64,000 bases of DNA from Candidatus Marinacidobacterium sp. (GCA_965220965.1 OZ244852.1:2400001-2464000), one strand, 5' to 3'; counted from the first letter of the stretch, positions 20,175 through 40,392 are shown. Translations and numbers: made by a program. Notes: generated from the letters alone by a model not told the origin.

Positions 20175-21251
20175 TCAGACCGCGGCCGGCGCCCGCGTCT
20201 CGGCGGTCTCCCGGGCGCCCATCCCGGCGGCGAGGCGCTCCCCGCCCCAGCGCACCAGCGCGGTCCCGACCGTCAATCCGGCGCCGACCGAGCTGAAGAG
20301 CAGGAGGTCCCCGGGCGTCACCGCCCCGCGGTCGATCGCGTCGCGAAGCGCGGTCGGGATCGAGGCGGCCGTGGTGTTCCCGTACTTGTGGACGGTCTTG
20401 ACGACCCGTTCCGGCGGGAGTCCCAGCCGCTTGGCGATCGCGTCGATGATCCGGGCGTTCGCCTGATGGCAGACGAGGAACGACACGTCCCCGCGGGTCA
20501 GGCCGGTCTCCGCGAGCAGCTCGTCGGCGGCGTCCGCCGAGCTTCGCACCGCGAACCGGAACACCTTCCGTCCCTCCTGCCGCACGAAGTGCTCGCGCCG
20601 GTCCACCGTGTCATGGGACGGCGGGTGGAGGCTCCCTCCGGCGGTCATGTAGAGCAGATCCCGCCCGGAGCCGTCCACCTTGTTGTTGAAGCCGAGGATG
20701 CCCTCGCCTTCCTGCGCCGGTTCGAGGAGGACGGCCCCGGCCGCGTCGCCGAACAGGATGCACGTCGTGCGGTCCTGGTAATCGGTGATCGAGGTCATCA
20801 CATCGGCCCCGATCACGAGCGCCTTGTCGGCGGCGCCGCTGGCCACGAACTGGGTCGCCGTCCCGAGCGCGAAGTTGAAGCCGCTGCAGGCCGCGGAGAG
20901 GTCGAAACCCCACGCCCGGCTGGCGCCGATGTCGTCCTGGACGAGGCACGCGGTCGCCGGAAAGTTCATGTCCGGCGTCACCGTGGCGACCACGATGACG
21001 TCGATCTCCTCGGCGCTGATCCCGCGGCGGCGAAGGGCGTCTTCCGCCGCTCGCGAGGCCAGAAAGGAACAACCGGTCCCTTCTTCGACCGCCCTTCGCT
21101 CCCGGATCCCGGTGCGGTCCACGATCCACTGGTCCGAGGTGTCCACGATCTCCTCGAAGTGGGCGTTCGTGAGCACCTTGTCGGGCAGATAGGCTCCGAC
21201 CGACGTGATCGCGACGGGGCGGACCGGAGAGCGGTCGGATGGCTGGATCAA
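20175..21251 (-). CDS. fabH: 3-oxoacyl-ACP synthase III
   Basis: [29 protein letters not shown] (Cys-His-Asn triad). Confidence 0.95.
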
Positions 21252-21350
21252 GGGGACAACTCCCGGCGCGGGCTAGGGGCTCGCGGCTGCAAACGGGGAA
21301 TCCTACGCGAACGGTCGGCCTGCGACGCTCCCCGGCGATAATCTGACCGG

Positions 21351-22106
21351 ATGGCCGTCCCGAGCCCGTCCCCGCCAGCGCCGGAACACGGCCCGGCGGC
21401 GCAGGCGGCGCCCCCCCGCGCAAGGGCGGCGGCGTTCTACGACCTCGACGGCACGCTCATCCGGACGAACCTGGTCCACGTGCTCGCCTGGTACGCGAGG
21501 AACGATCAGGGGCTGCTCCGCAGCCTGAAGTCGGTCGCCGCCACTGCGGTCGGAGTTCCGCTGTTCTTCACGACCGACCTGTACAGCCGGAAGGTGTTCA
21601 ACGACCTGTTCTTCCAGTGGTACCGGGGGCAGTCCTACGACCGGCTCCGCTTCCTCGCCGAAGAGCTCCACGAGAAAGTGATCCGCCCCGCGATCTTCCC
21701 CGGCGCCCCCGATCTGGTGGCCCAGGCGCGCCGCGCGGGACTTCGCCCCGTTGTCGTGACCGGGGCCCTCGAAGTCTCGGTTCGGCCGCTGCTCGAGGAG
21801 CTCGGGATCGACGAGTTCGTTGCGAACCGGCTTGAGTTCGTGGACGGCCGCGCCACTGGCCGGCTGTCGCCGCCGGTGCTCGCCGGGGCGAGCAAGGCGC
21901 TGTGGATGCGCGAGTACGCCGAACGCGAGGGTCTCTCGCTGAACGACTCCTACGCCTACGCCGACAGCATGTCGGACCTCCCGATGCTGAGCGTGGTCGG
22001 CCATCCGACCGCCGCCAACCCCGACCTGCGGCTCCGCAGCACCGCCCGCCGCCACGACTGGCCGGTGATCGACCTTCGCCGACGCTCCGCAGGCCCCCCG
22101 GCCTGA
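21351..22106 (+). CDS. elbB: HAD-IB phosphatase, ElbB-like
   Basis: [23 protein letters not shown]; first gene of the elb-like cluster. Confidence 0.8.
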
Positions 22107-22144
22107 CATCTCGTGGACAGGCTCCGCTATCCGAAAGGCCGCTG

Positions 22145-23743
<1,599 letters not shown>

Positions 23744-23747
23744 ACGC

Positions 23748-26700
23748 GTGACCGAAACGGCTCCCCGACCCCGGATCGACCTCGGCGAGGCGTTCGCCGG
23801 CAAGGGGATCCTGCTGCTCGGCGGGACCGGGTTCCTCGGGAAGGTGGTCGTCGGGATGCTGCTCGAGCACTTCCCCGACATCCGCCGGCTCTACCTCATG
23901 GTGCGGGCCCGCGACCTCGAGGGCAGCCGGACCCGCTTCCGGGAAATGGTCGAGGAGTCGGCGGCCTACGAGCCGCTGCGCCGCCGCCACGGGGACCGCC
24001 GGTGGGAGTTCCTCGACGAACGGGTCGAGGTGCTCGGCGGGGACATCACCGAAGAGGACTTCGGGTACTCCGAAGAGGAGGCGGCCCGGGTCGCGGGGGA
24101 CATCGACCTCGTCCTGAACTGCTCGGGACGCGTGGAGTTCAACCCACCGCTCGAGAACTCGATGGCGACCAACGTTCGCGGCACCCAGAACGTCATCGCT
24201 TTCGCCCGCCGGATGCGCCGCCCGGCGCTCGTCCACATCAGCACCTGCTTCGTCGCCGGGAACCGCGCCGGGGAGATCTACGAGGACGAGCCGCTCATCG
24301 GCTATTTCCCCCGCCGGGACCGCGAGGACCAGGAGTTCCGCGTCGACCGCGAGATCGAGGACTGCGAGCGCCTCGCCGCCCGGGTCCGCGACGAGTCGAA
24401 CGACAAGTCCCGCGCCGACGAGTTCCGCGAAGCGGCGCGCCGGCGGTTCCGGGAGGAGGGGCGGAACCCCGACGACGCCCGCGCGCTCCGCCTCGCGATC
24501 GCCGCCGAACGGCGGAACTGGGTCCGTCGCCGCCTCCGCGACCTGGGGATCGAGAAGGCCCGCGGCTGGGGCTGGCCCAACATCTACACCTACACCAAGA
24601 GCCTGGGGGATCAGCTCGTCGCCGAGGCCGACGGGCTTGCCCGCGCCATCGTCCGCCCTTCCGTCGTCGAGAGCTCGCTGGCGTTCCCGGTCACCGGCTG
24701 GAACGAGGGGTTCACCACGAGCGCGCCGCTGGTGCGGATGGCGCTCCGGGGCCAGAACCTCTTCCCGGTCAAGGAGGGCGTGGTCCTCGACGTCGTCCCG
24801 GTGGACCTGGTCGCCTCGGTGACCCTCGCCGTCGCCGCCGAGACGATGGTCACCGAGCCGCGCCTCGTCTACCAGGTCTGCAGCGGGGACAAGAACCCCT
24901 CCGAGGCCTCCCGGCTGGTGGACCTCGTCGGGATCTACAAGCGGCGCCACTTCCAGAACAAGCCGGGCGGACTGAAGCTGTGGAACGAGGTGCTGGGACG
25001 GATGGAGGCGACCAAGGTTCGCTCCGACCGCTTCGAGAAGCACACGCTCAAGTGGATGCGCCGCTCGGCGCAGGGGCTCCAGGACGCGCTCGACCGCGCC
25101 TCCGGCGAGCCGCTCGGGCCGCTGGTGACCGCCGTGGACCATCTGCGGACCCAGGTGCGGGGGTTCGACCACTTCGTCAGCCAGGGCGAGCGGCACTACC
25201 ACACCTTCCGGCCCTTCATCGCCGGGGAGCGCTTCATTTTCCGGGCCGATAACACCCGCGACCTGTTCTCCCGCCTCGACGGCAACGACGGCAGGCTCTA
25301 CTTCAACCCGGAGGAGATCGACTGGTACGACTACTGGCTCCACGTCCACCTTCCCGGGCTCGAGAAATGGGTCTTTCCCACGCTCGAACGCGAGGAGCGC
25401 GGCCGCCCCCGGCGGGTCTATCAGTACAAATCGATCGTTGAGCTGTTCGAGTCGAGCACCCGGAACCACGCCGGCCGGGTGGCCATGCGCATCACCCGGG
25501 GCGGACGGGAAGAGCGGATCACCTACGCCGATCTCCGGGAGTGCGTCCAGCGGGCCGCGGGGTTCCTCCGGGCGGCCGGCTTCGGGCCGGGGGATCACAT
25601 CGGCCTCCTCGCCGAGAACGCCCCCGAGTGGGGCATGGCCTACCTGGCGATTGCTCGGATCGGGGCGGTGGCGATCCCGCTGGACCGGGACACGCGGCCG
25701 GCCGACGTCCAGCGGCTGCTCGCCGCCGGCGACGCGAAGGCGCTCATCCTGAGCGACGCGCTCCATGACCGCCACGGGGCGATGGGCGCCGGGGAGTCAG
25801 GCCCGGGGTTCCGGGACATTCCGTTCGCCGAGCTCTTCGCCCTGGAGGACGAGGCCGAAGAAGAGCGCCGCATCGCCGACCTGCCGCCCCCTCCCACCGC
25901 CACGAGCCTGGCCTCGATCCTGTTCACCTCCGGGACGACCGGGTCTCCCAAGGGGGTGATGCTCACCCACCGCAACTTCACCAGCCTGGTGGCGAAGCTG
26001 CTCACGCTCTACGACATCGGGCCGAAGGACGGCGCGCTCAGCGTTCTGCCGCTCCACCATTCCTTCGAGTTCACGACCGGGTTCCTCCTCCCGCTCTCGC
26101 GCGGCGCCCAGATCGCCTACCTCGACGAGTTGAGCGGCGACACGATCACCCGTGAACTCCGAAAGGGCCAGACCACCTGCATCGTGGGCGTCCCGGCGCT
26201 GTGGGAGATGTTCCGCAAGAACCTCCTCAAGAAATTCGGGGACCGCTCGCCGCGGGCGGAGGACCTGGCGGTGGCGCTGGTGGACGCCGCCTATCTGCTT
26301 CGCGAGGACACCGGGCTGAACCTCGGACCGGCGCTCTTCCTGCCGATCCACGCGGCCCTCGGCGGGCGGATCCGGTATCTGATCAGCGGCGCCTCCGCGC
26401 TGTCCGAGACCGACTGGAAGTTCTTCCGCGGCCTCGGCTTCCACCTGGCGCAGGGCTACGGCCTCACCGAGGCGGCGCCGGTCCTGACCGTGACCCCGCC
26501 GGAGGGACGGATCCCCCTGGGGAGCGCCGGCAAACCGCTGCCCGGCATCGAGGTCCGGATCGCCGAGCCGGACGCCTCCGGCGTGGGTGAGGTCATTGCC
26601 CGCGGTCCCAACGTCATGCTGGGGTACTACGCCAACGAAGAGGCCACCAGCGAGGTCTTGCGCGACGGCTGGCTCCACACCGGCGACCTCGGCCGGCTCG

Positions 26701-28127
26701 ACGAGGAGGGGCATCTGTTCCTCTCCGGGCGCCGCAAGGACGTCATCGTGAACCGGGGCGGACGCAACATCTACCCCGACGAGCTCGAGGAGATCTACGC
26801 CGATGAGGCGCTGATCGAGGAGATGACCGTCGTCGGCCTTCCGGACGGCTCGGCGGAGACCCCGGCCGCCGTCGTCGTCGCGAAGGATGGGGCTCCCGGC
26901 GGGGAAGGCGCCGTCCGCGCCCGTTTCCGCGACGTCGGCGCCCGGCTGCCGCTCCACAAGCGGATCGGCATCGTGGAATTCCATGAGGGCCCGCTGCCGC
27001 GCACGACCACCCGCAAGGTGAAGCGGCGCGAAGTGCTGCGCTGGCTCGCCGCCCGCCGCCGTGACGCCGCTTCGGCGGAGAGCGAGGACACCGCCGCCCG
27101 CAGCCGGCTCTTCGAGCTCGTGGCGTCGGCGTGCGAGCGGCCGGCGTCGGGGCTGCGGAGCGGCTCCCGTTTCGCCGAACTGGGTTTCGACAGCCTGATG
27201 TTCAACGATCTGGCCGCCGCGGTCGGAACCGAGTTCGGGGTGATCGTCGCCCCCGAGGATCTGGCCCGGATGGAAACCCTTGGGGACCTCTCGGACGCCG
27301 TCGGGCCGGCGCGGGCGCGAACGAAGGCCGCTCGCCGCCCATCGGAACGGAAGGCCGAGACGTCCGAGATCGAGATCCCTCCGGCGCTCGCGCGCGCCGG
27401 CCGCGCCGGTCTCACCCAGGTCCAGCACTGGTTCTACCACCAGGTGCTCGAGCCGACCTTCAGCGGGCGCGCCTACGTCCCGTCCCACACCCACTACCTG
27501 GTCGTCGCGAACCACTCCTCCCACCTCGACATGGGGCTGGTCAAGATGGCGCTCGGGGACCAGGGCTCGAATCTCGTCGTTCTGGCCGCCGCCGATTACT
27601 TCTTCGACAACCGGGTGAAGCGGACCTTCTTCCACAACTTCACGAACCTGGTCCCGATGGAGCGGCGAGGTTCGCTCAAGCAGTCGCTCGAGATGGCCGC
27701 CGGGTATCTCGACCAGGGCCACAGCGTGCTGATCTTCCCGGAGGGAACCCGCTCGCGCAGCGGGGAGATCGCGCCCTTCCGGCGGGGGTTCGCGCACCTC
27801 GCCTACCGCTGCGGCGTCGGCGTGCTCCCGATGCATCTGAACACCTGGAACGCCTTTCCGCCGGGCGCGGTGGGCCTCAGATCGCGCCGGGTGACCGCGC
27901 GCATCGGCCCCTTCCTGTCGCACGAGTTCCTCGTCGGATTCGATGCCGGAGGCCCTCGCCGGGCTCGTGACCAGGCGGTGGCCGACCTGGTCCAGACGAT
28001 GGTGGAGCGGCTCTCCCGGGGAGAGCCGGTCCAGCTCGACGAGCTGGCGGAGCGCTTCCGTCCGTCTCCGGGGGAAGCCGACGCCGCGGCGCGGGAGTCC
28101 TCCGGGGCCGCGGCTCCGGTCGGCTGA
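23748..28127 (+). CDS. elbD: Multidomain fatty acyl reductase - acyl-CoA synthetase - ACP - PlsC acyltransferase, ElbD-like
   Basis: GGTGFLGK and YTYTK (FAR); FTSGTTGSPKG, GYGLTE, LHTGDLG (adenylation); LGFDSL (Ppant Ser); NHSSHLD, FPEGTRS (acyltransferase). Confidence 0.88.
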   Translation: MTETAPRPRIDLGEAFAGKGILLLGGTGFLGKVVVGMLLEHFPDIRRLYLMVRARDLEGSRTRFREMVEESAAYEPLRRRHGDRRWEFLDERVEVLGGDITEEDFGYSEEEAARVAGDIDLVLNCSGRVEFNPPLENSMATNVRGTQNVIAFARRMRRPALVHISTCFVAGNRAGEIYEDEPLIGYFPRRDREDQEFRVDREIEDCERLAARVRDESNDKSRADEFREAARRRFREEGRNPDDARALRLAIAAERRNWVRRRLRDLGIEKARGWGWPNIYTYTKSLGDQLVAEADGLARAIVRPSVVESSLAFPVTGWNEGFTTSAPLVRMALRGQNLFPVKEGVVLDVVPVDLVASVTLAVAAETMVTEPRLVYQVCSGDKNPSEASRLVDLVGIYKRRHFQNKPGGLKLWNEVLGRMEATKVRSDRFEKHTLKWMRRSAQGLQDALDRASGEPLGPLVTAVDHLRTQVRGFDHFVSQGERHYHTFRPFIAGERFIFRADNTRDLFSRLDGNDGRLYFNPEEIDWYDYWLHVHLPGLEKWVFPTLEREERGRPRRVYQYKSIVELFESSTRNHAGRVAMRITRGGREERITYADLRECVQRAAGFLRAAGFGPGDHIGLLAENAPEWGMAYLAIARIGAVAIPLDRDTRPADVQRLLAAGDAKALILSDALHDRHGAMGAGESGPGFRDIPFAELFALEDEAEEERRIADLPPPPTATSLASILFTSGTTGSPKGVMLTHRNFTSLVAKLLTLYDIGPKDGALSVLPLHHSFEFTTGFLLPLSRGAQIAYLDELSGDTITRELRKGQTTCIVGVPALWEMFRKNLLKKFGDRSPRAEDLAVALVDAAYLLREDTGLNLGPALFLPIHAALGGRIRYLISGASALSETDWKFFRGLGFHLAQGYGLTEAAPVLTVTPPEGRIPLGSAGKPLPGIEVRIAEPDASGVGEVIARGPNVMLGYYANEEATSEVLRDGWLHTGDLGRLDEEGHLFLSGRRKDVIVNRGGRNIYPDELEEIYADEALIEEMTVVGLPDGSAETPAAVVVAKDGAPGGEGAVRARFRDVGARLPLHKRIGIVEFHEGPLPRTTTRKVKRREVLRWLAARRRDAASAESEDTAARSRLFELVASACERPASGLRSGSRFAELGFDSLMFNDLAAAVGTEFGVIVAPEDLARMETLGDLSDAVGPARARTKAARRPSERKAETSEIEIPPALARAGRAGLTQVQHWFYHQVLEPTFSGRAYVPSHTHYLVVANHSSHLDMGLVKMALGDQGSNLVVLAAADYFFDNRVKRTFFHNFTNLVPMERRGSLKQSLEMAAGYLDQGHSVLIFPEGTRSRSGEIAPFRRGFAHLAYRCGVGVLPMHLNTWNAFPPGAVGLRSRRVTARIGPFLSHEFLVGFDAGGPRRARDQAVADLVQTMVERLSRGEPVQLDELAERFRPSPGEADAAARESSGAAAPVG

Positions 28128-28143
28128 GAAGGGGTCGGCCGCC

Positions 28144-29178
28144 ATGCCGGAAGAAGAGGGTCCGGGACCGTCCGGGCCGGACCCGACGCGCCCGGTCCTG
28201 GTCACCGGGGGAACCGGGTTCCTCGGGACCCACCTGCTCGATGTGCTGCTGGGAGGCGACCGCGATGGCGCCGCGCCCCTTCGTGTTCTGGCGCGCGAAC
28301 CCGCGCCGAGGCTCGCCGCGCGCGGCGTCGAAGTCGTGGAGGGGGACCTCCTCGAGGGGCCGGGGCTCGAGGTGGCGCTGGGCGGAGTCCGTGCGGTGTT
28401 CCACCTGGCTGGCATGGTGTCCCGCGATCCCGACGCCGCCGCCCGGCTCCAGCAGGTCCACGTGGACGGCGCCCGCCGTCTCGCCGGGCTGGCCCGCGCC
28501 GCCGGCGTCGAGCGGATCGTGCTGGTCTCGACCAGCGGGACGATCGCGGTGACCACGGGCCCCGAGCCGGAACTCGAGGAGTCGGCGCCGACCCCGATCG
28601 ACCAGATCGGGGGCTGGCCCTACTACCGCAGCAAGTGGCTCCAGGAGCGCGCCCTGCTCTCCGCGGCGGAGGACCTGGAGGTCGTCGTCGTGAACCCCTC
28701 GCTGCTTCTCGGTCCGGGAGACGAGCGGCTGTCCTCGACCGGGGATGTGCTCCGGTTCCTCGCCGGGGAGGTTCGCGTGATCCCGCCCGGAGGGCTGAAC
28801 TTCGTGGACGTCCGGGACGCCGCCGCGAGCGTGGCCTCGGCGATGACCCGGGGCCGGCCGGGACACCGCTACCTGCTCGGCGGCCACAACTGGAGCTTCG
28901 CCGACTTCTTCGCCCGCCTGGGCGAGGTCTCCGGCCTGACCGCCCCCCGCCTGCGGCTCCCGAAGGAGGTCTATACCGCCGCCGCGCTCGTCTCCGAGGA
29001 GGCGGCGCGACAGTTGGGTCGCGAACCCGCGGTGGACCGGATCAGCCGCGAGATGGCCGCGAGTTACTGGTATTTCAGTTCGGCGAAGGCGGAGCGGGAA
29101 CTCGGCCACACGGCGCGCGACGGTCGCCTCACCCTGCTGGAGACGGTTCGCTGGCTCGACGGTCGCGGGCTGGCCTGA
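28144..29178 (+). CDS. elbE: NAD-dependent epimerase/dehydratase (extended SDR), ElbE-like
   Basis: TGGTGFLG, VFHLAG, YYRSK, FVDVRDAA. Confidence 0.82.
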   Translation: MPEEEGPGPSGPDPTRPVLVTGGTGFLGTHLLDVLLGGDRDGAAPLRVLAREPAPRLAARGVEVVEGDLLEGPGLEVALGGVRAVFHLAGMVSRDPDAAARLQQVHVDGARRLAGLARAAGVERIVLVSTSGTIAVTTGPEPELEESAPTPIDQIGGWPYYRSKWLQERALLSAAEDLEVVVVNPSLLLGPGDERLSSTGDVLRFLAGEVRVIPPGGLNFVDVRDAAASVASAMTRGRPGHRYLLGGHNWSFADFFARLGEVSGLTAPRLRLPKEVYTAAALVSEEAARQLGREPAVDRISREMAASYWYFSSAKAERELGHTARDGRLTLLETVRWLDGRGLA

Positions 29179-29217
29179 CGCGGGAACCGCCCAGGCAAGG
29201 GGTCGCGCCCTCTCGTC

Positions 29218-30141
29218 TCACTCCCGGCGGATCCGGATCGCTCCCGGCGCCACCGAGACGGTGACGCCTCCCCGCGCGTGGGCCTGCTCCCCGTCGACCT
29301 CCAGGCTCATTCCCGCGGGCCCGACGGGGTCGAGCGGCTCGATCCGCATGCGCCGCACCGGACGGTGCTCGATCGCGCGGTGCCCGAAGTGGGTCCCCTG
29401 GACGAGGCGCGCCACCGCGTCCAGAACCGCCACCGGGCCGAGGGGGCCGATGAGCACCGCGTCGAGCAGGCCGTCGCCGGGATTCGCGGGGGGCGCGAGC
29501 GGGATGCCTCCCCCGATGCGCCGGGTGTTCAGCAGCGAGACGTTGAGCAGCAGTCGCGGACGGTCCGGCGCATCGTCGAGCGCGACCCGGTAGCGTCCGG
29601 CGCGGGAGGAGATCAGCTCCCGGGCGGCGGCCGCCGCGTAGGAGCCTCCGCCGAGGCGGCCGCTGCCGGCGCGGGCGCGTTCGTTCACGGCGGCGGCGAG
29701 CCCGACCGAACAACTGTTCAGGAAAGTGAGCGCGGGGCCGTCAGCGGATTCAACCCGCCCCAGGTCGGTGGGTTGCGCCCGGCTGCGGGCGAGGAACCGG
29801 ACCGCGTCGGCCAGCCGTCCCGGCGTTCCCACCGCCTGGGCGAAGTCGTTGCCCGTTCCCGACGGAAGAAGTCCGAGTTCGGCAACCGCCGCGGCGTTCT
29901 CCGCCGCCTGGGACAGCCCCCGCGCGGTCTCGGAGGCGGTGCCGTCGCCTCCGAACGCCACGATCAGTTCCCGTTCGCCGGCCTCGCGCCGGGCGATGTC
30001 CACGGCCTCCTTCGGCCCCCTCGTCCAGACGAGGTCATGGCCTCCGATTTGTTCCGCGACCGCTGGCGCGACCGCGCGCCACCGCGCCCGCGCCCGTCCC
30101 CGCCCGGCCGCCGGGTTCCCGATGACCAGAACCCGGCTCAC
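29218..30141 (-). CDS. Diacylglycerol/lipid kinase family (YegS/BmrU-like)
   Basis: NPAAG, GGDGT, PSGTGNDFA, EVDGE; start GTG 30141 or ATG 30234. Confidence 0.88.
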   Translation of the reverse strand: MSRVLVIGNPAAGRGRARARWRAVAPAVAEQIGGHDLVWTRGPKEAVDIARREAGERELIVAFGGDGTASETARGLSQAAENAAAVAELGLLPSGTGNDFAQAVGTPGRLADAVRFLARSRAQPTDLGRVESADGPALTFLNSCSVGLAAAVNERARAGSGRLGGGSYAAAAARELISSRAGRYRVALDDAPDRPRLLLNVSLLNTRRIGGGIPLAPPANPGDGLLDAVLIGPLGPVAVLDAVARLVQGTHFGHRAIEHRPVRRMRIEPLDPVGPAGMSLEVDGEQAHARGGVTVSVAPGAIRIRRE

Positions 30142-30350
30142 GTGGCGCAGCCCGCCTTCACGCCGGATCGCTGCGCCCGCGAGCGCCCGCGGGCGTATGC
30201 TTTCCTCTTGCGGGCCATCGCGAGGTTCCGGCATCGCGCCGGGGCGCGCCCGGACTCCCGAAGCGCCATGAACCCCCCTCCCGTCCAGCCCGACCCGGAA
30301 TTCCCGCCGGCTGGCGTCGCCGGCGCGCCCGGAGACCCGGAGGCGCGGGC

Positions 30351-31094
30351 TTGAAGGGACTCTTCGCCCGGATCGGGCGGCACACCTCGGCGGCGCTGGC
30401 GTGGATCCGGGACAGCATCGCGCACGGGATCATACGGGCGCGGATCCCGCCGAACGCGCTGACGCTCGCCGGGCCGGTGGCGATGGCTTTCGTCTTCTGG
30501 CCGGTGCTCGAGGGCAGGCTCCAGCTCGCCGGCTGGGTCGTCCTGCTCGCCGTCGCCTTCGATTCGCTGGACGGCGCGGTGGCGAGGACCTCGGGCCGGG
30601 TCTCCCGGTTCGGCGCCTACCTCGACTCGGTGGTGGACCGCTACGCGGACATGCTGCTGCTGTTTGCGCTGCTCGTCCATGTGCTCCAGGCGTTCTCCCC
30701 GGAGTCCCGGCCCCTCTGGTTCGGCCTGTGGTGCGCGACGGCGGTCGGGACTGTCGGGACGTCCTACGCCCGGGCCCGCGCCGAGGTGCTCATCCCGAAC
30801 TGCGCCGTCGGCTTCCTCGAGCGTCCGGAGCGCACGGTAACGATCATCATCGGCCTCTGGGCCGGCAACGTCCACATCGCGATCCTCATCATGGCCCTGT
30901 GGTCGAACCTGATCGCGGTGCAGCGGGTCGTCTTCACCCACCGCATCCTCCGCCACGGCGAGGCGTCCGCCGAGACGGCCTCCCGTTTCCTCTACTGGAG
31001 GTACGCCCGCGGCTCCGCCGAGCACACGATGCAGTCGGTGGCGTTCACCCTGCTCCTGATCTTCGGCCACCTGCTCCTCCCGACGCCCTACTGA
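30351..31094 (+). CDS. CDP-alcohol phosphatidyltransferase, phosphatidylinositol-phosphate synthase-like
   Basis: PNALT, DSLDGAVAR...GAYLDSVVDR, SYARARAE, LERPER. Confidence 0.85.
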   Translation: MKGLFARIGRHTSAALAWIRDSIAHGIIRARIPPNALTLAGPVAMAFVFWPVLEGRLQLAGWVVLLAVAFDSLDGAVARTSGRVSRFGAYLDSVVDRYADMLLLFALLVHVLQAFSPESRPLWFGLWCATAVGTVGTSYARARAEVLIPNCAVGFLERPERTVTIIIGLWAGNVHIAILIMALWSNLIAVQRVVFTHRILRHGEASAETASRFLYWRYARGSAEHTMQSVAFTLLLIFGHLLLPTPY

Positions 31095-31185: not shown

Positions 31186-32328
31186 ATGTCCGACGAAACC
31201 GGAGGGGGGCTGCACCTCCCTGACCTGAAGATCACCGACTTTCGGGGCATCCGCAGTCTCTCGATCCAGCGCCTGGGTCGGGTCTCGCTCATCGCGGGAC
31301 GTAATGGGGTCGGCAAGTCCACGGTCCTCGAGGCGGTTCGTGTGTATGCGGCGCGGGCGCGACCGGCGCTCCTGGAGGAGCTCCTTTATGGGCGAGACGA
31401 ATTCGCGTCTGCGCCTGAGGACGACGACGGCTGGCCGTGGGGGGACCCGGACTACGGCGCCCTCTTCCACGGCAGGTCCATCGACCGGGGACGTCCCATC
31501 AGCATCGGACCCGCCGTCGGCCACGACGACGTGCGGATTCGACTCCTGGCTCCCACTGACACTCACTTGCCTGACCGTGCGAAGCAATTGTTCAAGGAGG
31601 CGCCTCCGGAAGGCGGTATCCAGGTCATGCAAGTCCAGCATAAGGGAGAGCAGCGGTTCGTTCCTTCGTACGCCGCGCGTGCGTTCAGTTCCCAATGGAC
31701 AGGAGTTCGCTGGAACCACACGAGGCGCAGGCTGCCCGACTCCGAGGGATGGCCCGTCATGCGCTGCAATCCGCTGGGTCCCGACATGCCACGCAATGAA
31801 GATCTCGCGCGCTTCTGGGACCAGGTGGCCCTGACCGGGGAAGAGCAACTGGCCCTGCGCGCCATGAATCTTGGGGGCAGCGGCATTGAAGGCGTTGCCG
31901 TCGTGGGTGACGATCGTGGGCGTGGCGTGGGTCGCCGCGTCGTGGTTCGAGTGAATGGCCATGAGGGGCCTGTGCCGCTGAAGAGCCTCGGTGACGGGGT
32001 GACGCGCCTCTTCGCCGCCGGGCTCGCCCTCGCGAACAGTCACGGTGGGTTCCTCGTTGTTGACGAGGCCGAAAACGGAATCCACTATTCGATTCAGCCG
32101 GCCTTCTGGCGCATGGTGCTCAGGGCGGCTCACGAATACAACGTCCAGGTTCTCGCGACGACACACAGCAGCGACTGCATTCGGGGGTTTGCGCAGGCGG
32201 CCAGCGAGACGGAGGAGGCCGAAGGGATCCTGGTTCGACTCGATCGCGACGGCCCGGACCTGAGGGCCACCGAGTACACCGAGGAGGACCTGACGACGGC
32301 GGCGACGCAGGGCATCGAAGTCCGATAG
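31186..32328 (+). CDS. ABC/AAA_21-type ATPase
   Basis: FRGI, GRNGVGKS, SLGDG signature, VVDEAENGIH, ATTHS. Confidence 0.9.
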   Translation: MSDETGGGLHLPDLKITDFRGIRSLSIQRLGRVSLIAGRNGVGKSTVLEAVRVYAARARPALLEELLYGRDEFASAPEDDDGWPWGDPDYGALFHGRSIDRGRPISIGPAVGHDDVRIRLLAPTDTHLPDRAKQLFKEAPPEGGIQVMQVQHKGEQRFVPSYAARAFSSQWTGVRWNHTRRRLPDSEGWPVMRCNPLGPDMPRNEDLARFWDQVALTGEEQLALRAMNLGGSGIEGVAVVGDDRGRGVGRRVVVRVNGHEGPVPLKSLGDGVTRLFAAGLALANSHGGFLVVDEAENGIHYSIQPAFWRMVLRAAHEYNVQVLATTHSSDCIRGFAQAASETEEAEGILVRLDRDGPDLRATEYTEEDLTTAATQGIEVR

Positions 32329-32330
32329 AC

Positions 32331-32954
32331 GTGAGTCCGCCGCCGCCTCGTATCCTGCTCGTCGAGGGGCCGGATGATGAGCATGTCGTGAAGCATCTCT
32401 GGGGTCGCGAACGCGACGTACCCTTCGAAATCAGCAGCAAGGGGGGTTACCCAAGCCTCAAGGCCGCAATCGGCCCCGAGATCATGGTTTCCGGCCGGGT
32501 TGCTCTGGGGATCCTGGTGGATGCGAACGATGACCCCGACGCGCGATGGGACGAGGTGAAGAGTCGTCTCAAGAGGTACGGCTGCGATCTTCCGAGGGCG
32601 GCCGCTCGCACGGGGACGATCGTTGATGGGTCACCCCGAGTCGGCGTCTGGCTGATGCCCGATAACGAGTCATCCGGCGAGCTGGAGGATTTCATCGAGC
32701 AACTGATCCCGCCGGAAGATAAGGTGTGGCCCCGCGCGGTGAGCTACATCGACGGTATTCCCGAGAATGAGAGGCGGTTTGCCTCGGGGAAGATCCAGCG
32801 AGCCAGGATCCACGCTTGGCTTGCGGCGCGAAAGGAGCCCCGGAAAATGGGCGCCGCGATCCGCGCCGGTGATCTGGATCGGAGCGCCCCCTACGGGGCC
32901 TCATTGCGGAATTGGCTTGAGGCGCTCTTCGGAGAAGCCGGTGGGGCGGGCTAG
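32331..32954 (+). CDS. TOPRIM-like protein (DUF3226-like)
   Basis: [23 protein letters not shown]...GELEDF, RIHAWLA; 2 bp after the ATPase. Confidence 0.78.
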
Positions 32955-33043
32955 GTAGAGCGCGAAGGGCCGTCGACCGATTCGCGGGTGGTGTCGCGGA
33001 CCGGAGAGCGCCGGTGAGCGTCATCCCCCGGAGGGATGTCTTG

Positions 33044-33757
33044 ATGGCGCAGAGCTCCGGCATCGAGTGGACCGAGGCGACCTGGAACCCGGTCACCGGC
33101 TGCACGAAGGTCAGCCCGGGGTGCAGGTTCTGCTACGCCGAGCGCATGGCGGGGCGGCTCCAGGCGATGGGCCAGGCGAACTACGCCGCCGGATTCCGGC
33201 TGACTCTCCAGCCGCGCATGCTCGACCGCCCTCTCCGCTGGAAGCGGCCGCAGACCGTGTTCGTGAACTCGATGAGCGACCTGTTCCATCCGGAGGTTCC
33301 GCCCGACTTCATCCGCCGGGTCTTCTCCGTCATGCAGGAGGCGCACTGGCATCGGTTCCAGGTCCTGACGAAGCGGGCGGAACGGCTCGCCGAAATCGCC
33401 CCCGACCTGCCCTGGCCAGGTCAGGTGTGGATGGGAGTGAGCGTCGAGAACGGGCGCTACCGGGAGCGGGTGGCGCGGCTCCGGTCGGTCCCCGCGAAGG
33501 TCCGCTTCCTGTCGCTTGAACCGCTGCTCGGTCCGTTGCCGGAGCTCGACCTCGAGGGGATCCACTGGGTCATCGTAGGGGGCGAGTCCGGCCCGCGCTC
33601 CCGGCCGATGGATCCGGGCTGGGCCCGGGATATCCGGGACCAGTGCGTTGACGCTGGGGTCCCGTTTTTCTTCAAGCAGTGGGGCGGCGCGCGGCGGAAG
33701 GCGGCGGGGCGGCGCCTCGACGGCCGGGAGTGGAACCAGATGCCGGCGCGCGTCTGA
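33044..33757 (+). CDS. Phage Gp37/Gp68 (DUF5131) family radical-SAM-like protein
   Basis: [50 protein letters not shown]. Confidence 0.92.
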
Positions 33758-34200: not shown

Positions 34201-35526
34201 TCAGTCGCCGTAGCCTACCGTCGAGCGGGCGAATTCCTTCACCTTCTCGGCGGTCCGGCGCTCTTCGACGATCTTCTCCCAGTCCACCGCAGGCTCCTTG
34301 ACCTCGGCGGTCGGCGGAAGGATGTACGGCGGCAGGTTGTACTCGTCCTTGAACATCTGGGTCCGGACGTGCCCGGTGGCGTACTCGGCGTTCTCTCCGC
34401 TCATGAGGTAGGTCAGGGTGGGGACCAGATCCCGCCGCTGCACCCGCTCGGTCACGGTGTGGCCCTTCTTGAAGTCGGGCCCGAGCGCCATGAACCACAC
34501 GTAGTGGGCGTAGTAGTTGCCCGGGCTGTGGCCAAGCTGCCCGTAGATGTTCACCTCGTCGTCGCGGCCGCACTCGGGGCGGATCACCAGCGCCGTCGTA
34601 TCCCGCAGGTACGGGTCAGCCTGGATCTCCCTCCACAGGTTGCCGATCAGCTCATCGGTGGTCTTGATGTGCTTGATGTACTCCCAGTAGTCCGTGTTGT
34701 AGTCCCAGAACCCGAAGTCGGCGTGAGCGTCGTCGAGCGCGAGGATCTGCGCGGTGATCGAACGCGGCTTGAACTCCTTGAGGATCTGCGGCACGAGCGT
34801 GAGCACCTGCGCGTCTCCGTAGGGGATCTCCCGGTTGATCACCGGCTCCTTGGTGGACGGCGGGATGTAGGACTTGCTCTCCAGCACGCTGGCGATGAAG
34901 TCCTCGACCTGCTTGCGCTGCTGCGGCGTGTGTCCGAGGCCCTTCTCGACGTTCAGGTCGACGATCTGGGCCGCGTTCAGCGGCTGCTCCGGATAGAAGA
35001 TCCGGTTCATGGTCAGGCTGGTCGAACCATCCTTGACCCCGTAGTCGGGATGCTGGCTGAAGTGCTTCACATCCCAGGTCCACGCCCGGTAGTAGGACGC
35101 GCCCTGCAGGGTCCAGTAGTCCGTCGCCGGTCCCCCGGTCTTGCTCCGGATGTACTCCGCCCAGGTGGGGTAGCGGGGCCGCTGCGCCGGAGCGTCGCGG
35201 CCGCACAGGACCTCGGTGTACATGTAGCCGTGGAGGTTCGCCGTCTCGCCGTAGTCCTCGGTGAAGACAGTGGCCTCCTCGGCCATCTTCGTCTGGTGGG
35301 GCGAGTGCTCGGGGTTCCCGATCACGTCGTTCTTGCGGGCGCCGTTGCCCAGAATGACGGTGACCAGGTGCTTCGTCTTGAAGCCCGGGTTCTCGGGAAG
35401 GACCATGCCGCCCTGCGGAATCCCGGCCCCCGCCTCGAAGATCGGGCTCCCGGCCGCGTTCCGGGTCGACAGCACCGCCCCGGCGCTCGCGGCGGCGCCC
35501 AGTTTGAAGAAGTCTCTGCGGTCCAT
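34201..35526 (-). CDS. Tat-exported protein, alkaline-phosphatase-superfamily-like fold
   Basis: MDRRDFFK signal; VTVILGNGAR, DDAH, TDELIGNLW, PECGRD, GH, ALGPDF, DLVPTL. Confidence 0.7.
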   Translation of the reverse strand: MDRRDFFKLGAAASAGAVLSTRNAAGSPIFEAGAGIPQGGMVLPENPGFKTKHLVTVILGNGARKNDVIGNPEHSPHQTKMAEEATVFTEDYGETANLHGYMYTEVLCGRDAPAQRPRYPTWAEYIRSKTGGPATDYWTLQGASYYRAWTWDVKHFSQHPDYGVKDGSTSLTMNRIFYPEQPLNAAQIVDLNVEKGLGHTPQQRKQVEDFIASVLESKSYIPPSTKEPVINREIPYGDAQVLTLVPQILKEFKPRSITAQILALDDAHADFGFWDYNTDYWEYIKHIKTTDELIGNLWREIQADPYLRDTTALVIRPECGRDDEVNIYGQLGHSPGNYYAHYVWFMALGPDFKKGHTVTERVQRRDLVPTLTYLMSGENAEYATGHVRTQMFKDEYNLPPYILPPTAEVKEPAVDWEKIVEERRTAEKVKEFARSTVGYGD

Positions 35527-37028
35527 CAGTTCAGACCCTCCTTGCCGCCGCTGGAGGCGGCCGCGGTTTCTTCATCCTCGTTGAAGAACAGAACCTTGAC
35601 TCCATCGATCTCGGGGTCGCGGTCCTCGTAGTAGGTGTAGAAGTTCATCGCGGCGTCGGAGATGCCGAGCCGGACGAGCTCCCACTCGCCCCACTCCATC
35701 GTGTCCGTCACGGTGAACGAGCCGGTCCAGATGTGGGGCTCCGGCAGCTTCGACGGCCGGTTCAGCGCGATGAAGCCGCCCATCTCGGGGGTCATGCTCT
35801 TGAGCTTGACCTTGACGGCGTCCGCGCCGTTCGGGGACCGGACATAGCCCTCGATGCCGTGGACGCCGGAGAGGTTGTCCTCGGCCAGCACGGTGATCCC
35901 CACCTGCTCGCCGAGCTTCGCCTCGGTCTTGGTGAACTGGACCGCGAGAACCTTCGCCGGGGTCTGGTCCACCATCTCCGTCTCCTGATCCACGTGGACG
36001 GTGGCGGCTTCCATCATCTTTTCCGTCCGGTTGAAGTAGTAGCGGATGTTCGTCGCGTGGTCCTTGAGGGTGACGCGCATCATCTGCCACTCGCCGCCCT
36101 CGTACCACTGCGGGATCTGGAGCGCGCCGCGGAAGTGTCCGGGCTTGCCGCCGATCATCACCATGGTCGAGCGGATCTGGTGGTAGCCGGAGGGCGATAC
36201 CCAGATGGTCTCGGCCTCCGTCGGCCCCGAGACATCGTCCTCCGCGACGACCTCGTACCGGATCAGCCCGCCGCCCGCGCGGACCCGTTCCGTCTCAACC
36301 GAGACCGACTTGAGCGTTGGCGCGTTGATGTCGGTGTGCGGGCCCTCGGAGACCTGGAAGCCGATCGGGGTCCCGTCCTCTTCCTGCATCGGCTTGTGGA
36401 AGTCCGCCCAGTAGGCCTTCCGGTCGCCGACCCGGTCGGCGATGATCGTTGTGCCAACGACGTAGCGGCCCGGCGCCGCGTAGCGGGACAGCTTGCCCCG
36501 TCCAAGGAACAGCGTCTCATCGGAGTCGTGCGGCTGGAAGTTGATGTACATCGTCGCCGCCCGGCCCAGTTCCCGGTTGTAGAACAGGGAGACGAAGGAC
36601 TGCGCCTTGTTGTAGGGCGACACGACGCGCGCGATGGCCCGGACCTCCTCGCCCGGCGCCACCGACTGGGTCAGAACGCGCATCTCGGTGAGGATCGGGG
36701 GAAGCTGGTTCCCGGTGAGGTCCACTTCCCGGAGCTGCTGGTCCCGGCGCCGGTACTGGTACTGCTCGGGGACCCGCAGGGAGGGATCGAGCGCCCAGCC
36801 GCCGTCGTTGTGGCCGCTGGAGCTGATCACGCCGAACTCGTTCAGCACCTCGTGCGGGGCCAGCAGCGGGTGGCGCTCGCCCTCGGCCGCCCTCGTCTGG
36901 GGCGCCGCCTCCTCGGTGGCCTCCTGGCCCTCTTCCTGCGCCACCGCGAAGCCCGCGGACAACAGGAGCGCCGCGGCCAGCGTGACCCACGGCGACGAGC
37001 CTCGTTTGGAGCTGTTGAGCAACAGCAT
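35526..37028 (-). CDS. Secreted protein with three tandem beta-rich (Ig-like) repeats
   Basis: Sec signal ending AVA; repeats with P.L..V.V...GE, AED..SG, GEW...D...N..YY. Confidence 0.75.
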   Translation of the reverse strand: MLLLNSSKRGSSPWVTLAAALLLSAGFAVAQEEGQEATEEAAPQTRAAEGERHPLLAPHEVLNEFGVISSSGHNDGGWALDPSLRVPEQYQYRRRDQQLREVDLTGNQLPPILTEMRVLTQSVAPGEEVRAIARVVSPYNKAQSFVSLFYNRELGRAATMYINFQPHDSDETLFLGRGKLSRYAAPGRYVVGTTIIADRVGDRKAYWADFHKPMQEEDGTPIGFQVSEGPHTDINAPTLKSVSVETERVRAGGGLIRYEVVAEDDVSGPTEAETIWVSPSGYHQIRSTMVMIGGKPGHFRGALQIPQWYEGGEWQMMRVTLKDHATNIRYYFNRTEKMMEAATVHVDQETEMVDQTPAKVLAVQFTKTEAKLGEQVGITVLAEDNLSGVHGIEGYVRSPNGADAVKVKLKSMTPEMGGFIALNRPSKLPEPHIWTGSFTVTDTMEWGEWELVRLGISDAAMNFYTYYEDRDPEIDGVKVLFFNEDEETAAASSGGKEGLN

Positions 37029-37157: not shown

Positions 37158-38582
37158 TCACGCCCTGGCGGAGGGCTCCCCCTGGCCCACATCCCGGATC
37201 ATGAGGGCGACCCGCCGGAGCGACGGACTCAGCCCGGCGCGCTCCGCCAACCGTCTCAGATCCCACTGCGCGACGGTGCGCATGTCGAGCCGCATCTGGC
37301 CCTCGAGCTCGTCGAAGACGGCCCGATAGTCGCGCACCGCGCCGCTCTCGTCCCCGGCGGCGAGCCGGGCCGCCGCGAGCAGCAGCTTCTGGCGCGCGGA
37401 CCCGGTGGGGTCCTTCCCGACAGCCTCCTCGAACAGGCCGACGGCTTCTTGGTGCCGCCCCTGGAGGTAGACCGCGTTCGCCAGGTTGTAGCGCCCGAAG
37501 ACGAAATCGGGGGCGAGCTCCAGGGACCGCCGGAACGCGGCCTCCGCTTCGGGAAGCCGGTCGAGCTCCCGTAGGGTGACGCCCAGGTTCGAGGCCAGCG
37601 AGTGGCTCAGCGGGTCCAGTTCCGCCGCCCGCTCCAGCGGCGCGAGGGCGTCCCCCGGACGCTCCAGTTCGCCGAGCGACGCGCCCATGTTGGCCCAGGC
37701 CGGGCCGAAGGCGGGCAGCGCCGCGGTCGCACGGGTGAAGGAGCCGAGCGCCGCCTCGAGGTCATCCAGCACGATCATCGTCTTGCCGAGTTCGAAGTGG
37801 GCCGCGGCGAAGGCGGAGTCGCGCTCGATGGATTCGCGGAAGGCGTTCGCAGCCTCCGCCGGCTTGCGCCGCTCGGCGAGCGAGCAACCGAGCAGCAGGT
37901 GCGCCACCGGGTTCTCCGGATCCGCGCGGACGCCGGCCTCGGCGGCCTTTGCCCGGACGACCACATCGGGCGCGTGGAGCGCGACCCTCAGGACGGCGCG
38001 CGCATCTGAGGCGGCGGCGAGTTCAAGCGCCCCCGGCCCGGAATCGGCCGCCGGCGCCGACGGTGGGTCCGGCGGCCGGACGACTTCGAACTGGCAGGCG
38101 GCGCCCCGACCCTGAAGCAGGTCCACCGCCCGCCGCACGACCTCCCCCTCCTCCGCCGACGCCGCCAGGTCGCGCTCGCCGGCGCCCAGATGCGTCAGCC
38201 GGGCCAGCACATAGGCGGGCGTCGCCACCGCCGGGGCTGGCGGGACCTCGCCCGGCCCCTTCGACCGCCGGATCGGCTGCCGGCAGGGAAAGGCGAGATG
38301 GAGGTCGGGGACGAAGAGGACGCCAGCCTCCTCGGGCAAGGGCTCCAATTCGTGGAGCAGCAGCGGCAGATCGACCGCCGGCGGCGCCCCGAACACCGCG
38401 CCATCCGAGGTCCCGGCCGCCGCTTCGGCGGCCTCCCGCGCGGCGTCCCCATGCCGGCTCAGGAAGAGCCGCCAGCGGCGCCCTTCCGACGGCGCCCGGT
38501 GGGCCGGCCACCCGCCGTTCCAGGCGTCGCTGGCGGCCGGCGGCGCCGCCGTCAGACCGGCGCGCTCAACCCGCTCCCACAT
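37158..38582 (-). CDS. Tetratricopeptide repeat protein
   Basis: Several TPR units (AHLLLG, AHFELG, AWANMG, SNLG, YNLA); start MWERV inferred. Confidence 0.78.
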   Translation of the reverse strand: MWERVERAGLTAAPPAASDAWNGGWPAHRAPSEGRRWRLFLSRHGDAAREAAEAAAGTSDGAVFGAPPAVDLPLLLHELEPLPEEAGVLFVPDLHLAFPCRQPIRRSKGPGEVPPAPAVATPAYVLARLTHLGAGERDLAASAEEGEVVRRAVDLLQGRGAACQFEVVRPPDPPSAPAADSGPGALELAAASDARAVLRVALHAPDVVVRAKAAEAGVRADPENPVAHLLLGCSLAERRKPAEAANAFRESIERDSAFAAAHFELGKTMIVLDDLEAALGSFTRATAALPAFGPAWANMGASLGELERPGDALAPLERAAELDPLSHSLASNLGVTLRELDRLPEAEAAFRRSLELAPDFVFGRYNLANAVYLQGRHQEAVGLFEEAVGKDPTGSARQKLLLAAARLAAGDESGAVRDYRAVFDELEGQMRLDMRTVAQWDLRRLAERAGLSPSLRRVALMIRDVGQGEPSARA

Positions 38583-38630
38583 GCCAGCGCCGAATTCTAA
38601 GGAAGGCGCGCGTATCCTTCGGTTCACGCC

Positions 38631-39290
38631 ATGACGAACACGCTCCACCGCTACGGCGCTCCGGAGACGCTGACGGACGACTACATCGTGTTTGCGATGG
38701 CGGCCAGGGGGATCAACGACGAGGGCTCCCCGGAGAAACTGCGCCGGTTCACCGACATCGCGCTGCGGCACGGACCGATCAATCTGGGCGACGCCACCCG
38801 GGGCGGGATCTTCCGGTCCTCGAGACTGAACCCGCTCGCGCACTGGCGCCGGCGGAAGCGGCTCCCGAAGAAGGCGATCCGCGAAGGCGTCAATGCGCCC
38901 ACCGTCGTGTCCGCCGTCTTCGACCGGGAAGAGAACCTGGTCGCGTTCCTCTCCGACCTCCGCGAGGCGGATCTCGGACTCTCGATCAACGTCAGCGGCC
39001 TCCTGGACCGCGCCGACGACCTCGCCCGCGAGGCCGGGATCACCCGGCACAGCATCGAATACTCGTTGGGCTTCTTCGGCAACCTGGACCGCCTTCCCGA
39101 CCGGGCGACGCTGACGCTCTCCACGATGTGCGGCCACGGGATGCTCTCGTTCGGCTTCGCCCGAAAGATGCTCGACTGGGTGCGCACCGGGCGGCGGGGG
39201 CCCGACGAGTGCGCCGAGGCGATGGCGCGTTTCTGCTCCTGCGGGGTGTTCAACACGACCCGCGCCCGCCGCATCCTGCGCGGGGGCTAA
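38631..39290 (+). CDS. Hypothetical protein with C-terminal Cys motifs
   Basis: MTNTLHRYG; TMCGHGM and CSCGVFN; codon usage like its neighbours. Confidence 0.8.
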   Translation: MTNTLHRYGAPETLTDDYIVFAMAARGINDEGSPEKLRRFTDIALRHGPINLGDATRGGIFRSSRLNPLAHWRRRKRLPKKAIREGVNAPTVVSAVFDREENLVAFLSDLREADLGLSINVSGLLDRADDLAREAGITRHSIEYSLGFFGNLDRLPDRATLTLSTMCGHGMLSFGFARKMLDWVRTGRRGPDECAEAMARFCSCGVFNTTRARRILRGG

Positions 39291-40283: not shown

Positions 40284-40392
40284 GAGGCTCCGGCGCTTCG
40301 TCCTGGCCGCGCACGAACCGCTGACGAACCGACTCGAGGCGAAGTCGGCCCCTGCCGGCCGCCGCGCGCCCCTGGCGTCGGCGAGACCGTCT

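Follow-up and report, generated by a model that had tools for sequence, protein, structure and literature searches.

Can a bacterial gene cluster that builds alkyl ether lipids and a gene set that attaches an inositol headgroup belong to one pathway? This question is raised by a 64,000-nucleotide stretch (hereafter the window) of the genome of Candidatus Marinacidobacterium sp. (GCA_965220965.1 OZ244852.1:2400001-2464000; genome 3.25 Mb, 70% G+C; C1:2400001-2464000 in our own contig numbering). Here an elb-type ether-lipid cluster, a lipid kinase gene and a CDP-alcohol phosphatidyltransferase gene stand side by side, and ino1, the gene for myo-inositol-1-phosphate synthase (MIPS), lies in the same window. 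A preliminary description of the window had proposed that these genes form a bacterial route to ether-linked phosphatidylinositol (PI). We assign a probability of about 0.5 to the reading that two modules come together in this locus and make it a membrane-lipid supercluster, the host being an acidobacterium of the class Vicinamibacteria. Ether-linked PI as a real product, a conclusion that rests on gene linkage, appears evenly balanced, and synthesis of PI or of its phosphate precursor, phosphatidylinositol phosphate (PIP), by this organism is very probable. These views draw on family assignments, on the conservation of the inositol-phosphate site, on the fold and on synteny, all of which were computed here.

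According to this reading, module 1 (21351-30234) would consist of an elbB-elbE-type cluster and a kinase gene of the DAGK/YegS family, and module 2 of the transferase gene and its partner ino1, which lies 10 kb off here and is adjacent to the transferase gene in a sister family. MIPS would supply L-myo-inositol-1-phosphate, and the Elb enzymes would supply a 1-O-alkyl glycerolipid. The kinase would then phosphorylate a neutral intermediate that stems from Elb, either alkylglycerol or alkylacylglycerol, and probably diacylglycerol (DAG) too, to a phosphatidate analogue, which CdsA, present in a single copy elsewhere in the genome, would activate with CTP. Joining of the CDP-lipid with inositol-1-phosphate by the transferase would yield PIP, and a phosphatase would release PI; the candidate for this last step is the single PgpA homologue detected in the genome scan, by analogy with BT_1525. 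We infer the order of these steps, the substrate of the kinase and the presence of ether lipids among the donors. On this view the taxonomic order to which the genome belongs would make 1-O-alkyl PI by a dedicated route, from Elb through an alkylglycerolipid kinase and CdsA to a seven-helix PIP synthase fed by MIPS, and we put this route forward tentatively.

Judged by sequence and structural model, the transferase is of the PIP or archaetidylinositol phosphate (AIP) synthase type, and not a phosphatidylglycerophosphate (PGP), cardiolipin or phosphatidylserine (PS) synthase. The preliminary description had made the same assignment from the motifs SYARARAE and ERPER, both of which are present in the translation, and the assignment holds with NCBIfam models, the profile match to a PIP synthase, the conserved arginines and the structural model. 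The three best NCBIfam scores, well ahead of all others, are those of AIP synthase (NF040950, 126.3 bits), PIP synthase (NF045883, 105.8 bits) and the BT_1523-type enzyme (NF052561, 90.4 bits). When a profile of 27 homologues was compared with the PDB, the PIP synthase of Mycobacterium tuberculosis (MtPIPS) matched at 3.2e-30 and that of Renibacterium salmoninarum at 1e-21; AF2299 and the di-myo-inositol phosphate (DIPP) synthase were weaker than the PIP synthases (4mnd, the DIPP synthase, 2.5e-13), and PgsA reached just 7.8e-4. The catalytic signature D71xxD74G75xxA78R79...G88xxxD92xxxD96, which has the form D1xxD2G1xxAR...G2xxxD3xxxD4 defined in PMC4634129, is invariant in the 27 homologues. 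The same paper describes for MtPIPS that inositol phosphate is bound through its phosphate group by R155 and R195, that S132 and K135 contribute, and that P153 lines the lipid groove. The counterparts of R155 and R195 are R161, within ERPER, and R192, within a QR pair, again invariant in the 27 homologues, and in the profile alignment S132 corresponds to S138 and P153 to P159. The AlphaFold model (pLDDT 93) comprises six core helices and a seventh, C-terminal helix (223-241), which is hydrophobic and conserved in the order. In Foldseek, MtPIPS chains match it best (TM 0.75-0.79 on target, rmsd 2.2-2.7 A), the top entries being 6h59, 6h5a, 6wmv and 6h53, and PS and PGP synthases rank far lower. 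From these sequence and model data inositol-1-phosphate is very likely the acceptor, and we conclude that the donor is a CDP-lipid.

The relation of the transferase gene to ino1 was surveyed in a sample of 151 genomes of the class, where families f1, f2 and f3 constitute the order of the window; f1 has the arrangement of the window, and f2 and f3 are sister families. The class tallies of transferase, MIPS, ElbD and distances include the unpublished genome G110, and a tally of ElbD in 300 genomes given below includes the unpublished G196; no conclusion hinges on them. The preliminary description had placed ino1 at 41195-42547, and the gene lies exactly there on the minus strand, with both MIPS Pfam domains and as the one match in the genome; its start is at 42547, and it heads a string of minus-strand genes running toward the transferase gene. 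MIPS was detected in just 3 of 14 control genomes. Within the class a transferase homologue occurs in 139 and MIPS in 144 of the 151 genomes, which makes their co-occurrence uninformative as a test, and hence gene distances were used instead. Both genes are found in 47 genomes of the order, on the same contig in 39, and their starts lie at most 30 kb apart in 32 of these 39. In f1 the usual arrangement is that of the window, convergent at a distance of 7-20 kb, and five f1 genomes have the two genes far apart; in f2 and f3 they share a strand and are separated by at most 8 kb in 13 of 16 cases (0.1-8 kb). In two genomes (G086 and G011) ino1 directly follows the transferase gene on the same strand. 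Eleven order-level loci were chosen for closeness of the transferase gene to ino1, so that the unbiased count is the distance tally of 32/39. At one further site, outside the order of the window (L027, G045:C438), a short PIP-synthase-type gene with 35% identity stands immediately upstream of ino1 and in the same orientation; this adds a second, independent instance of transferase and MIPS genes lying next to each other. In L025 (G014:C6:492000-511999) the kinase, ferredoxin-domain and TAT-signal matches are each split into two adjacent pieces, suggesting frameshifts or assembly errors.

Linkage to the ether-lipid cluster was followed in the same genomes. Each of the 50 other genomes of the order encodes a full-length ElbD (f1 26/26, f2 18/18, f3 6/6); the rest of the class yielded it only in 1 of 39 genomes of family f5, and the other families have just partial ligase-acyltransferase matches. 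The long form of the transferase, defined by an identity of at least 48% over the full length, occurs in 26/26 genomes of f1, 17/18 of f2, 5/6 of f3 and one genome of f5, and the two proteins thus have nearly the same distribution. ElbD and transferase genes share a contig in 40 genomes, and their starts are at most 30 kb apart in 38 of them; gaps of 12-20 kb hold insertions, for example a transposase or a glycoside hydrolase. Genes found between elbE and the kinase gene in L022 (an ISL3 transposase and an aldehyde dehydrogenase fragment) and in L006 (a GH63-like hydrolase) were likewise set aside as insertions, not pathway genes. The kinase gene is the divergent neighbour of the transferase gene in 9/9 related loci and in 10 of the 11 order-level loci. 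In addition, fabH, followed by a DUF255 thioredoxin gene, is divergently oriented to the HAD-LarA pair in 10/10 loci of f2 and f3, at a distance of at most 300 bp in eight of the ten. The transferase gene is therefore syntenic with ino1, the kinase gene, the elb cluster and fabH throughout the order. Since it recurs in this way, the arrangement is no accident of a single genome, and the objection foreseen in the preliminary description, that the flanking genes might not be syntenic in relatives, fails. In f5, a family counted among those without ElbD, a long transferase (48% identity over 1-246) was also seen directly beside a PlsC/AGPAT-like acyltransferase gene, with no kinase gene, in L041 (G024:C13:28000-46000).

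To which of the two modules does the kinase belong? In the window its gene lies on the minus strand, so that it converges with the SDR gene of the Elb cluster and diverges from the transferase gene across 116 bp. The best PDB match of the kinase is a BmrU/DgkB-like DAG kinase (1.7e-19), and its TIGR00147 score of 94.4 bits is below the cut-off of 118.65; the substrate is not readable from sequence. In 18 loci of class families lacking ElbD, the short transferase gene has no DAGK gene, ino1 or Elb gene within about 9 kb (0/18), and likewise no kinase gene, ino1 or Elb gene was seen near the transferase gene in an Aquificota locus (within 10 kb) and in two archaeal loci. A random sample of 300 other Acidobacteriota genomes contained 43 with full-length ElbD, and 20 of these loci were examined. 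In 10 of the 20, all from other acidobacterial families, a DAGK_cat+YegS_C gene stands beside ElbD, in five cases convergent after ElbE as in the window and in five directly upstream and co-directional (ElbD 31-34% identical). The 20 loci contain no fabH and no CDP-alcohol transferase of the five types of the window genome; a PIP-synthase-type gene and ino1 join the ElbD-kinase neighbourhood only in the order of the window. Because the kinase gene is found beside ElbD in 10/20 loci and in two arrangements, against 0/18 beside the short transferase genes of ElbD-less families, it tracks Elb, and the kinase probably works in the Elb pathway. The linkage in other acidobacterial lineages fits the proposal of the preliminary description that the kinase rephosphorylates the Elb product, although the order of steps in that proposal is something we infer. 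Within the dedicated ether-PI route, the kinase could catalyse a hitherto unassigned step, integral to the aerobic bacterial Elb pathway throughout Acidobacteriota; this, too, is a tentative suggestion.

Other explanations of the transferase itself must be weighed against this reading. One source names homologues automatically as 'CDP-diacylglycerol--glycerol-3-phosphate 3-phosphatidyltransferase', which would favour a PGP, cardiolipin or PS synthase standing near an unrelated ino1. However, the scores of the corresponding models are low (pgsA 26.1 bits against a cut-off of 109.1, ClsA 26.9 against 240, pssA 36.7), and the genome encodes four other CDP-alcohol transferases, namely a true PgsA (125 bits, cut-off 109), a second PgsA/Cls-like protein, a true PssA (124 bits, cut-off 107) and one unclassified member. 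Moreover, the PDB E-values and the structure ranking given above separate the transferase from PgsA and from PGP and PS synthases, and the gene adjoins that of MIPS in G086 and G011. Such an identity is ruled out by these data, and the explanation as a whole receives almost no weight from us; the possibility raised earlier, that the transferase could be a PGP or cardiolipin synthase, fails with it. Alternatively, the transferase might take inositol-1-phosphate and a donor other than a CDP-lipid, for example CDP-inositol in the synthesis of di-myo-inositol phosphate, or CDP-inositol with a neutral alkylacylglycerol in a Kennedy-type reaction. DIPP synthases have the same fold and acceptor site, with 4mnd matched also by Foldseek, and for some Bacteroidetes a Kennedy-like route to inositol lipids has been suggested (PMC9246714). 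Against this, the score for the DIPP synthase model NF041135 is 49.5 bits where the cut-off is 580, and the genome shows no part of an inositol-1-phosphate cytidylyltransferase (IPCT), with 22 bits as the highest N-terminal score. The groove proline is kept, and the protein has the size of a lipid synthase, with six core helices and one more. Hence a DIPP synthase is unlikely, and a donor of this kind is very improbable in general.

An ordinary diacyl-PI pathway deserves more attention. In this case the kinase, the transferase and ino1 would serve a mycobacterial style of synthesis (DAG, phosphatidate, CDP-DAG, PIP, PI) and merely adjoin elb and fabH, owing to clustering of lipid genes and inherited gene order, and the Elb lipids would receive other headgroups or stay neutral. 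We regard this as doubtful but worth serious consideration. Several observations speak for it and, to that extent, against a dedicated ether-PI route. Transferases of the same type and MIPS are near-universal in the class, also in families without ElbD, so that PI synthesis in the lineage is independent of Elb. In G086 and G011 the kinase, transferase and ino1 genes form a compact unit 15-25 kb from ElbD, and in G014 the distance is 366 kb. Unrelated genes, coding for a TAT-signal protein, a 500-aa protein and a TPR protein, are conserved neighbours as well, and all synteny counts come from one order, whose members are kin and not independent. Ether lipids of subdivision-4 Acidobacteria are reported with phosphocholine headgroups (10.64898/2026.06.23.733905). 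The DAG kinase Rv2252, which feeds PI synthesis in mycobacteria (PMC3229680), is a precedent for the diacyl-PI pathway and for the supercluster reading as well. The enzymes themselves add further reservations. The transferase is under all three equivalog cut-offs (180 for NF040950, 170 for NF045883 and 350 for NF052561), so it is not an equivalog of any of them, and K135 of MtPIPS is replaced by R141 (SYIKARAE versus SYARARAE). Its higher score for AIP than for PIP synthase was considered as a hint of ether-donor preference and rejected, since the same order is seen in nine other homologues, including some from ElbD-less families and one from Aquificota, and is common to all class homologues tested; it is no sign of ether use. 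Ether specificity cannot be read from the sequence, and headgroup enzymes such as Psd and Cls tend toward indifference to the lipid core (PMC9385802). On paper the kinase is not even required, for 1-alkyl-2-acyl-glycerol-3-phosphate could go straight to CdsA. However, the diacyl-PI explanation does not readily account for a kinase gene that stands beside ElbD in lineages with no transferase gene nearby and beside none of the short transferase genes of ElbD-less families; this gene is the sole DAGK_cat gene of the genome and shares its 116-bp spacer with the transferase gene. Moreover, the linkage of ElbD and transferase genes outlasts rearrangements that have moved and inverted ino1. The claim of the preliminary description that the transferase adds inositol phosphate to an ether lipid is hence upheld for the inositol-phosphate branch, but nothing indicates ether over ester donors, and relatives of the enzyme occur in families without ElbD.

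The genes of the supercluster are collected in the table. The fabH, elb-like, DAG-kinase-family and CDP-alcohol transferase genes that the preliminary description had listed were all recovered with Pfam and NCBIfam models, and fabH is divergent as described. A plus-strand open reading frame (ORF) at 29278-30354 was rejected as the kinase gene; it matches no family and overlaps the minus-strand DAGK_cat gene.

Table 1. Positions of lipid-related features in the window, with strand and supporting matches
Feature	Position	Strand	Evidence
fabH (beta-ketoacyl-ACP synthase III)	20175-21251	-	Pfam ACP_syn_III + ACP_syn_III_C; NF006829 413 bits, cut-off 249
HAD-IB phosphatase, ElbB position	21351-22106	+	PF12710 5e-35; TIGR01490 121.8 bits, cut-off 98.3
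LarA-family (Lar_N) gene, ElbC position	ORF 21902-23743, likely ATG 22145	+	PF09861; NF052592 LarAH14/15/16 819.5 bits, cut-off 740
ElbD-like multidomain enzyme, 1459 aa	23748-28127	+	Pfam domain order
NAD-dependent epimerase/SDR, ElbE position	ORF 27943-29178, likely start 28144	+	PF01370 5.9e-23; TIGR03466 (HpnA-like) 223.7 bits, below cut-off 367.65
DAGK/YegS/BmrU-family soluble lipid kinase	29218-30234	-	DAGK_cat 3e-23 (82 bits), YegS_C 7.7e-24 (85 bits)
Divergent spacer between kinase and transferase genes, 116 bp	30235-30350		
CDP-alcohol phosphatidyltransferase, PIP/AIP-synthase type	30351-31094	+	PF01066
ino1 (MIPS), 450 aa	41195-42547	-	PF07994 1e-91, PF01658 1e-29

The ether-lipid function of the cluster is predicted by analogy with the literature on Myxococcus xanthus. 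In that organism ElbB is a HAD protein, ElbC has no assigned function, ElbD has the order FAR-ACS-ACP-AT and ElbE is an NAD epimerase, and the steps to the alkyl ether are described as still unknown (PMC9131029). The ElbD-like protein of the window combines fatty-acyl reductase, acyl-CoA/AMP ligase, carrier protein and AGPAT-type acyltransferase in one chain, with the Pfam domains NAD_binding_4 (25-358), Sterile (482-543), AMP-binding (567-961), PP-binding (1120-1185) and Acyltransferase (1237-1363). The HAD gene, the gene in the ElbC position, the domain order of ElbD and the NAD-dependent epimerase family of ElbE all resemble elbA-elbE of M. xanthus as the literature describes it. The two clusters differ in that no ElbA-type gene is seen here and that a lipid kinase gene and a PIP-synthase-type gene are attached. 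The HAD gene was considered as the PIP phosphatase and is not favoured, because the same gene also belongs to elb clusters in lineages whose loci have no transferase gene close by.

The gene in the ElbC position scores above its cut-off as a member of the LarA family (NF052592, NPN-dependent hydroxyacid isomerase), and LarC (388.6 bits) and LarE (264 bits) are encoded elsewhere in the genome, at C1:369721-370839 and C1:690718-691479. Thus, a nickel-pincer-cofactor step may be part of bacterial Elb ether-lipid synthesis. A LarA-family gene also accompanies ElbD in other acidobacterial lineages. The suggestion of the preliminary description that FabH primes the alkyl chains finds nothing specific in its favour. 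The genome has a single PF08541 match, so fabH is its sole FabH-type gene and therefore a housekeeping one; a dedicated paralogue of the cluster is rejected for the same reason.

Several known inositol-lipid systems invite comparison with the transferase and its locus. Like the actinobacterial PIP synthases (PgsA1 of M. tuberculosis and the R. salmoninarum enzyme), which are its best PDB matches, it has the class I CDP-alcohol phosphotransferase fold, the full motif, both arginines, the serine and the groove proline. Unlike them, it shares only about 30% identity, scores 106 bits against the 170 required by NF045883, has arginine in place of K135 and carries the added C-terminal helix 223-241. 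A YegS/Rv2252/BmrU-family kinase is associated with PI synthesis in the mycobacterial system too, but here the kinase gene is the divergent neighbour of the transferase gene and lies beside an ether-lipid cluster. Archaeal AIP synthase, which uses an ether-lipid CDP donor (PMC4634129), is the best curated model for the transferase (126 bits) and has the same acceptor; however, the score is under its cut-off of 180, and the donor here would be a fatty-alkyl lipid and not an isoprenoid one. In Bacteroides thetaiotaomicron, BT_1522-1526 combine MIPS, PIP synthase and a PgpA-type PIP phosphatase and proceed via a PIP intermediate (PMC9246714). The window genome similarly has MIPS, a PIP-synthase-type gene and one PgpA, whereas its PgpA gene lies outside the locus, no inositol phosphorylceramide (IPC) synthase is seen, the BT_1523 model gives 90 bits against 350, and a kinase gene and Elb genes are attached.

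Elb-like clusters of sponge Acidobacteriota have been published (PMC9426513), and a preprint of June 2026 describes such clusters in subdivision-6 Acidobacteriota and Poribacteria, with glycerol-3-phosphate acyltransferases, DAG kinases, CDP-alcohol phosphatidyltransferases and 3-oxoacyl-ACP synthases as neighbours (10.64898/2026.06.23.733905). These are clusters of the same kind in the same class of bacteria, also with kinase, transferase and 3-oxoacyl-ACP synthase genes adjacent. The preprint text treats the neighbours generically as enzymes of precursors and headgroups, and the word inositol has no occurrence in it as available; compared with this text, what is new here is the assignment to inositol phosphate, the synteny with ino1 and the broader linkage of the kinase to ElbD. 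Full-text searches of the literature returned no link between elbD and inositol, and nothing on point for Vicinamibacter with phosphatidylinositol or for Acidobacteria with inositol and ether. Small amounts of PI have been reported in a Terriglobia isolate (PMC12935467). Bacterial diether and ester/ether PI lipids (PI-DEG and PI-AEG) are documented for Aquificae (PMC4318418, Table 2), so that the claim of an undescribed route has to be narrowed: the lipids and the kinase and transferase neighbours were already in print, but the link to inositol is absent from the preprint text. Ether-linked PI appears in environmental lipidomics as well. These lipids belong to the predicted product class, and the Aquificota transferase homologue is 42% identical to that of the window. 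However, they are chemical findings to which no genes are assigned, and the Aquificota locus has no kinase gene, ino1 or ElbD within 10 kb. A Stigmatella study of 1983 is said to have described PI bearing alkyl ethers.

Ether lipids and inositol lipids are both uncommon in bacteria, and each serves as a biomarker in environmental studies. The locus offers a concrete, testable gene set, composed of Elb, a lipid kinase, a variant PIP synthase and MIPS, in a globally abundant lineage from soil, sea and sponges, and it suggests a DAGK-family kinase as a missing step of the poorly understood Elb pathway. If ether-PI is a true product, Vicinamibacteria would be candidate sources of PI-AEG and PI-DEG signals in environmental lipidomes; if the dedicated route holds, a gene set and a widespread source organism would have been named for bacterial ether-PI. 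If only diacyl-PI is made, the finding would be an ordinary PI pathway beside an ether-lipid cluster.

Besides an inserted islet, the interval of 10 kb between the transferase gene and ino1 contains conserved genes with no apparent part in lipid metabolism, which code for a TAT-signal protein, a 500-aa protein, a TPR protein, a 219-aa hypothetical protein and a ferredoxin-domain protein. The islet (31186-33757, plus strand), between the transferase and TAT-signal genes, holds an AAA_21 ATPase (31186-32328), a DUF3226 gene (32331-32954) and a DUF5131 gene (33014-33757), and looks like a small mobile or defence islet. Its ATPase and DUF3226 genes are absent from all nine related loci, and DUF5131 is present only in L001 and L006. 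The ORF of the TPR protein (37158-39137, 659 aa) begins with about 170 codons that appear to be an antisense shadow of the 219-aa gene. The latter (38631-39290, plus strand) has no Pfam family (Atlas clusters of about 225 aa at 0.97). An AbiEii-type nucleotidyltransferase gene of the type IV toxin-antitoxin family (39597-40283, plus strand; PF08843 1.2e-13) lies between the 219-aa and ferredoxin-domain genes and takes the place of a spurious minus-strand ORF of 358 aa (39546-40622). The ferredoxin-domain protein (264 aa, 40393-41187, minus strand) has an N-terminal 2x[4Fe-4S] domain and a C-terminal part of no assigned family. The 219-aa and 264-aa genes accompany ino1 across the order, in orientations that differ between f1 and f2. 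The TAT-signal protein (441 aa, 34201-35526) and its 500-aa partner (35526-37028), both encoded on the minus strand, gave no Pfam or NCBIfam match beyond the signal peptide. Their identity across the family is 90-96% and 79-87%, respectively, and that of the lipid genes beside this pair is far lower, at 52-77%.

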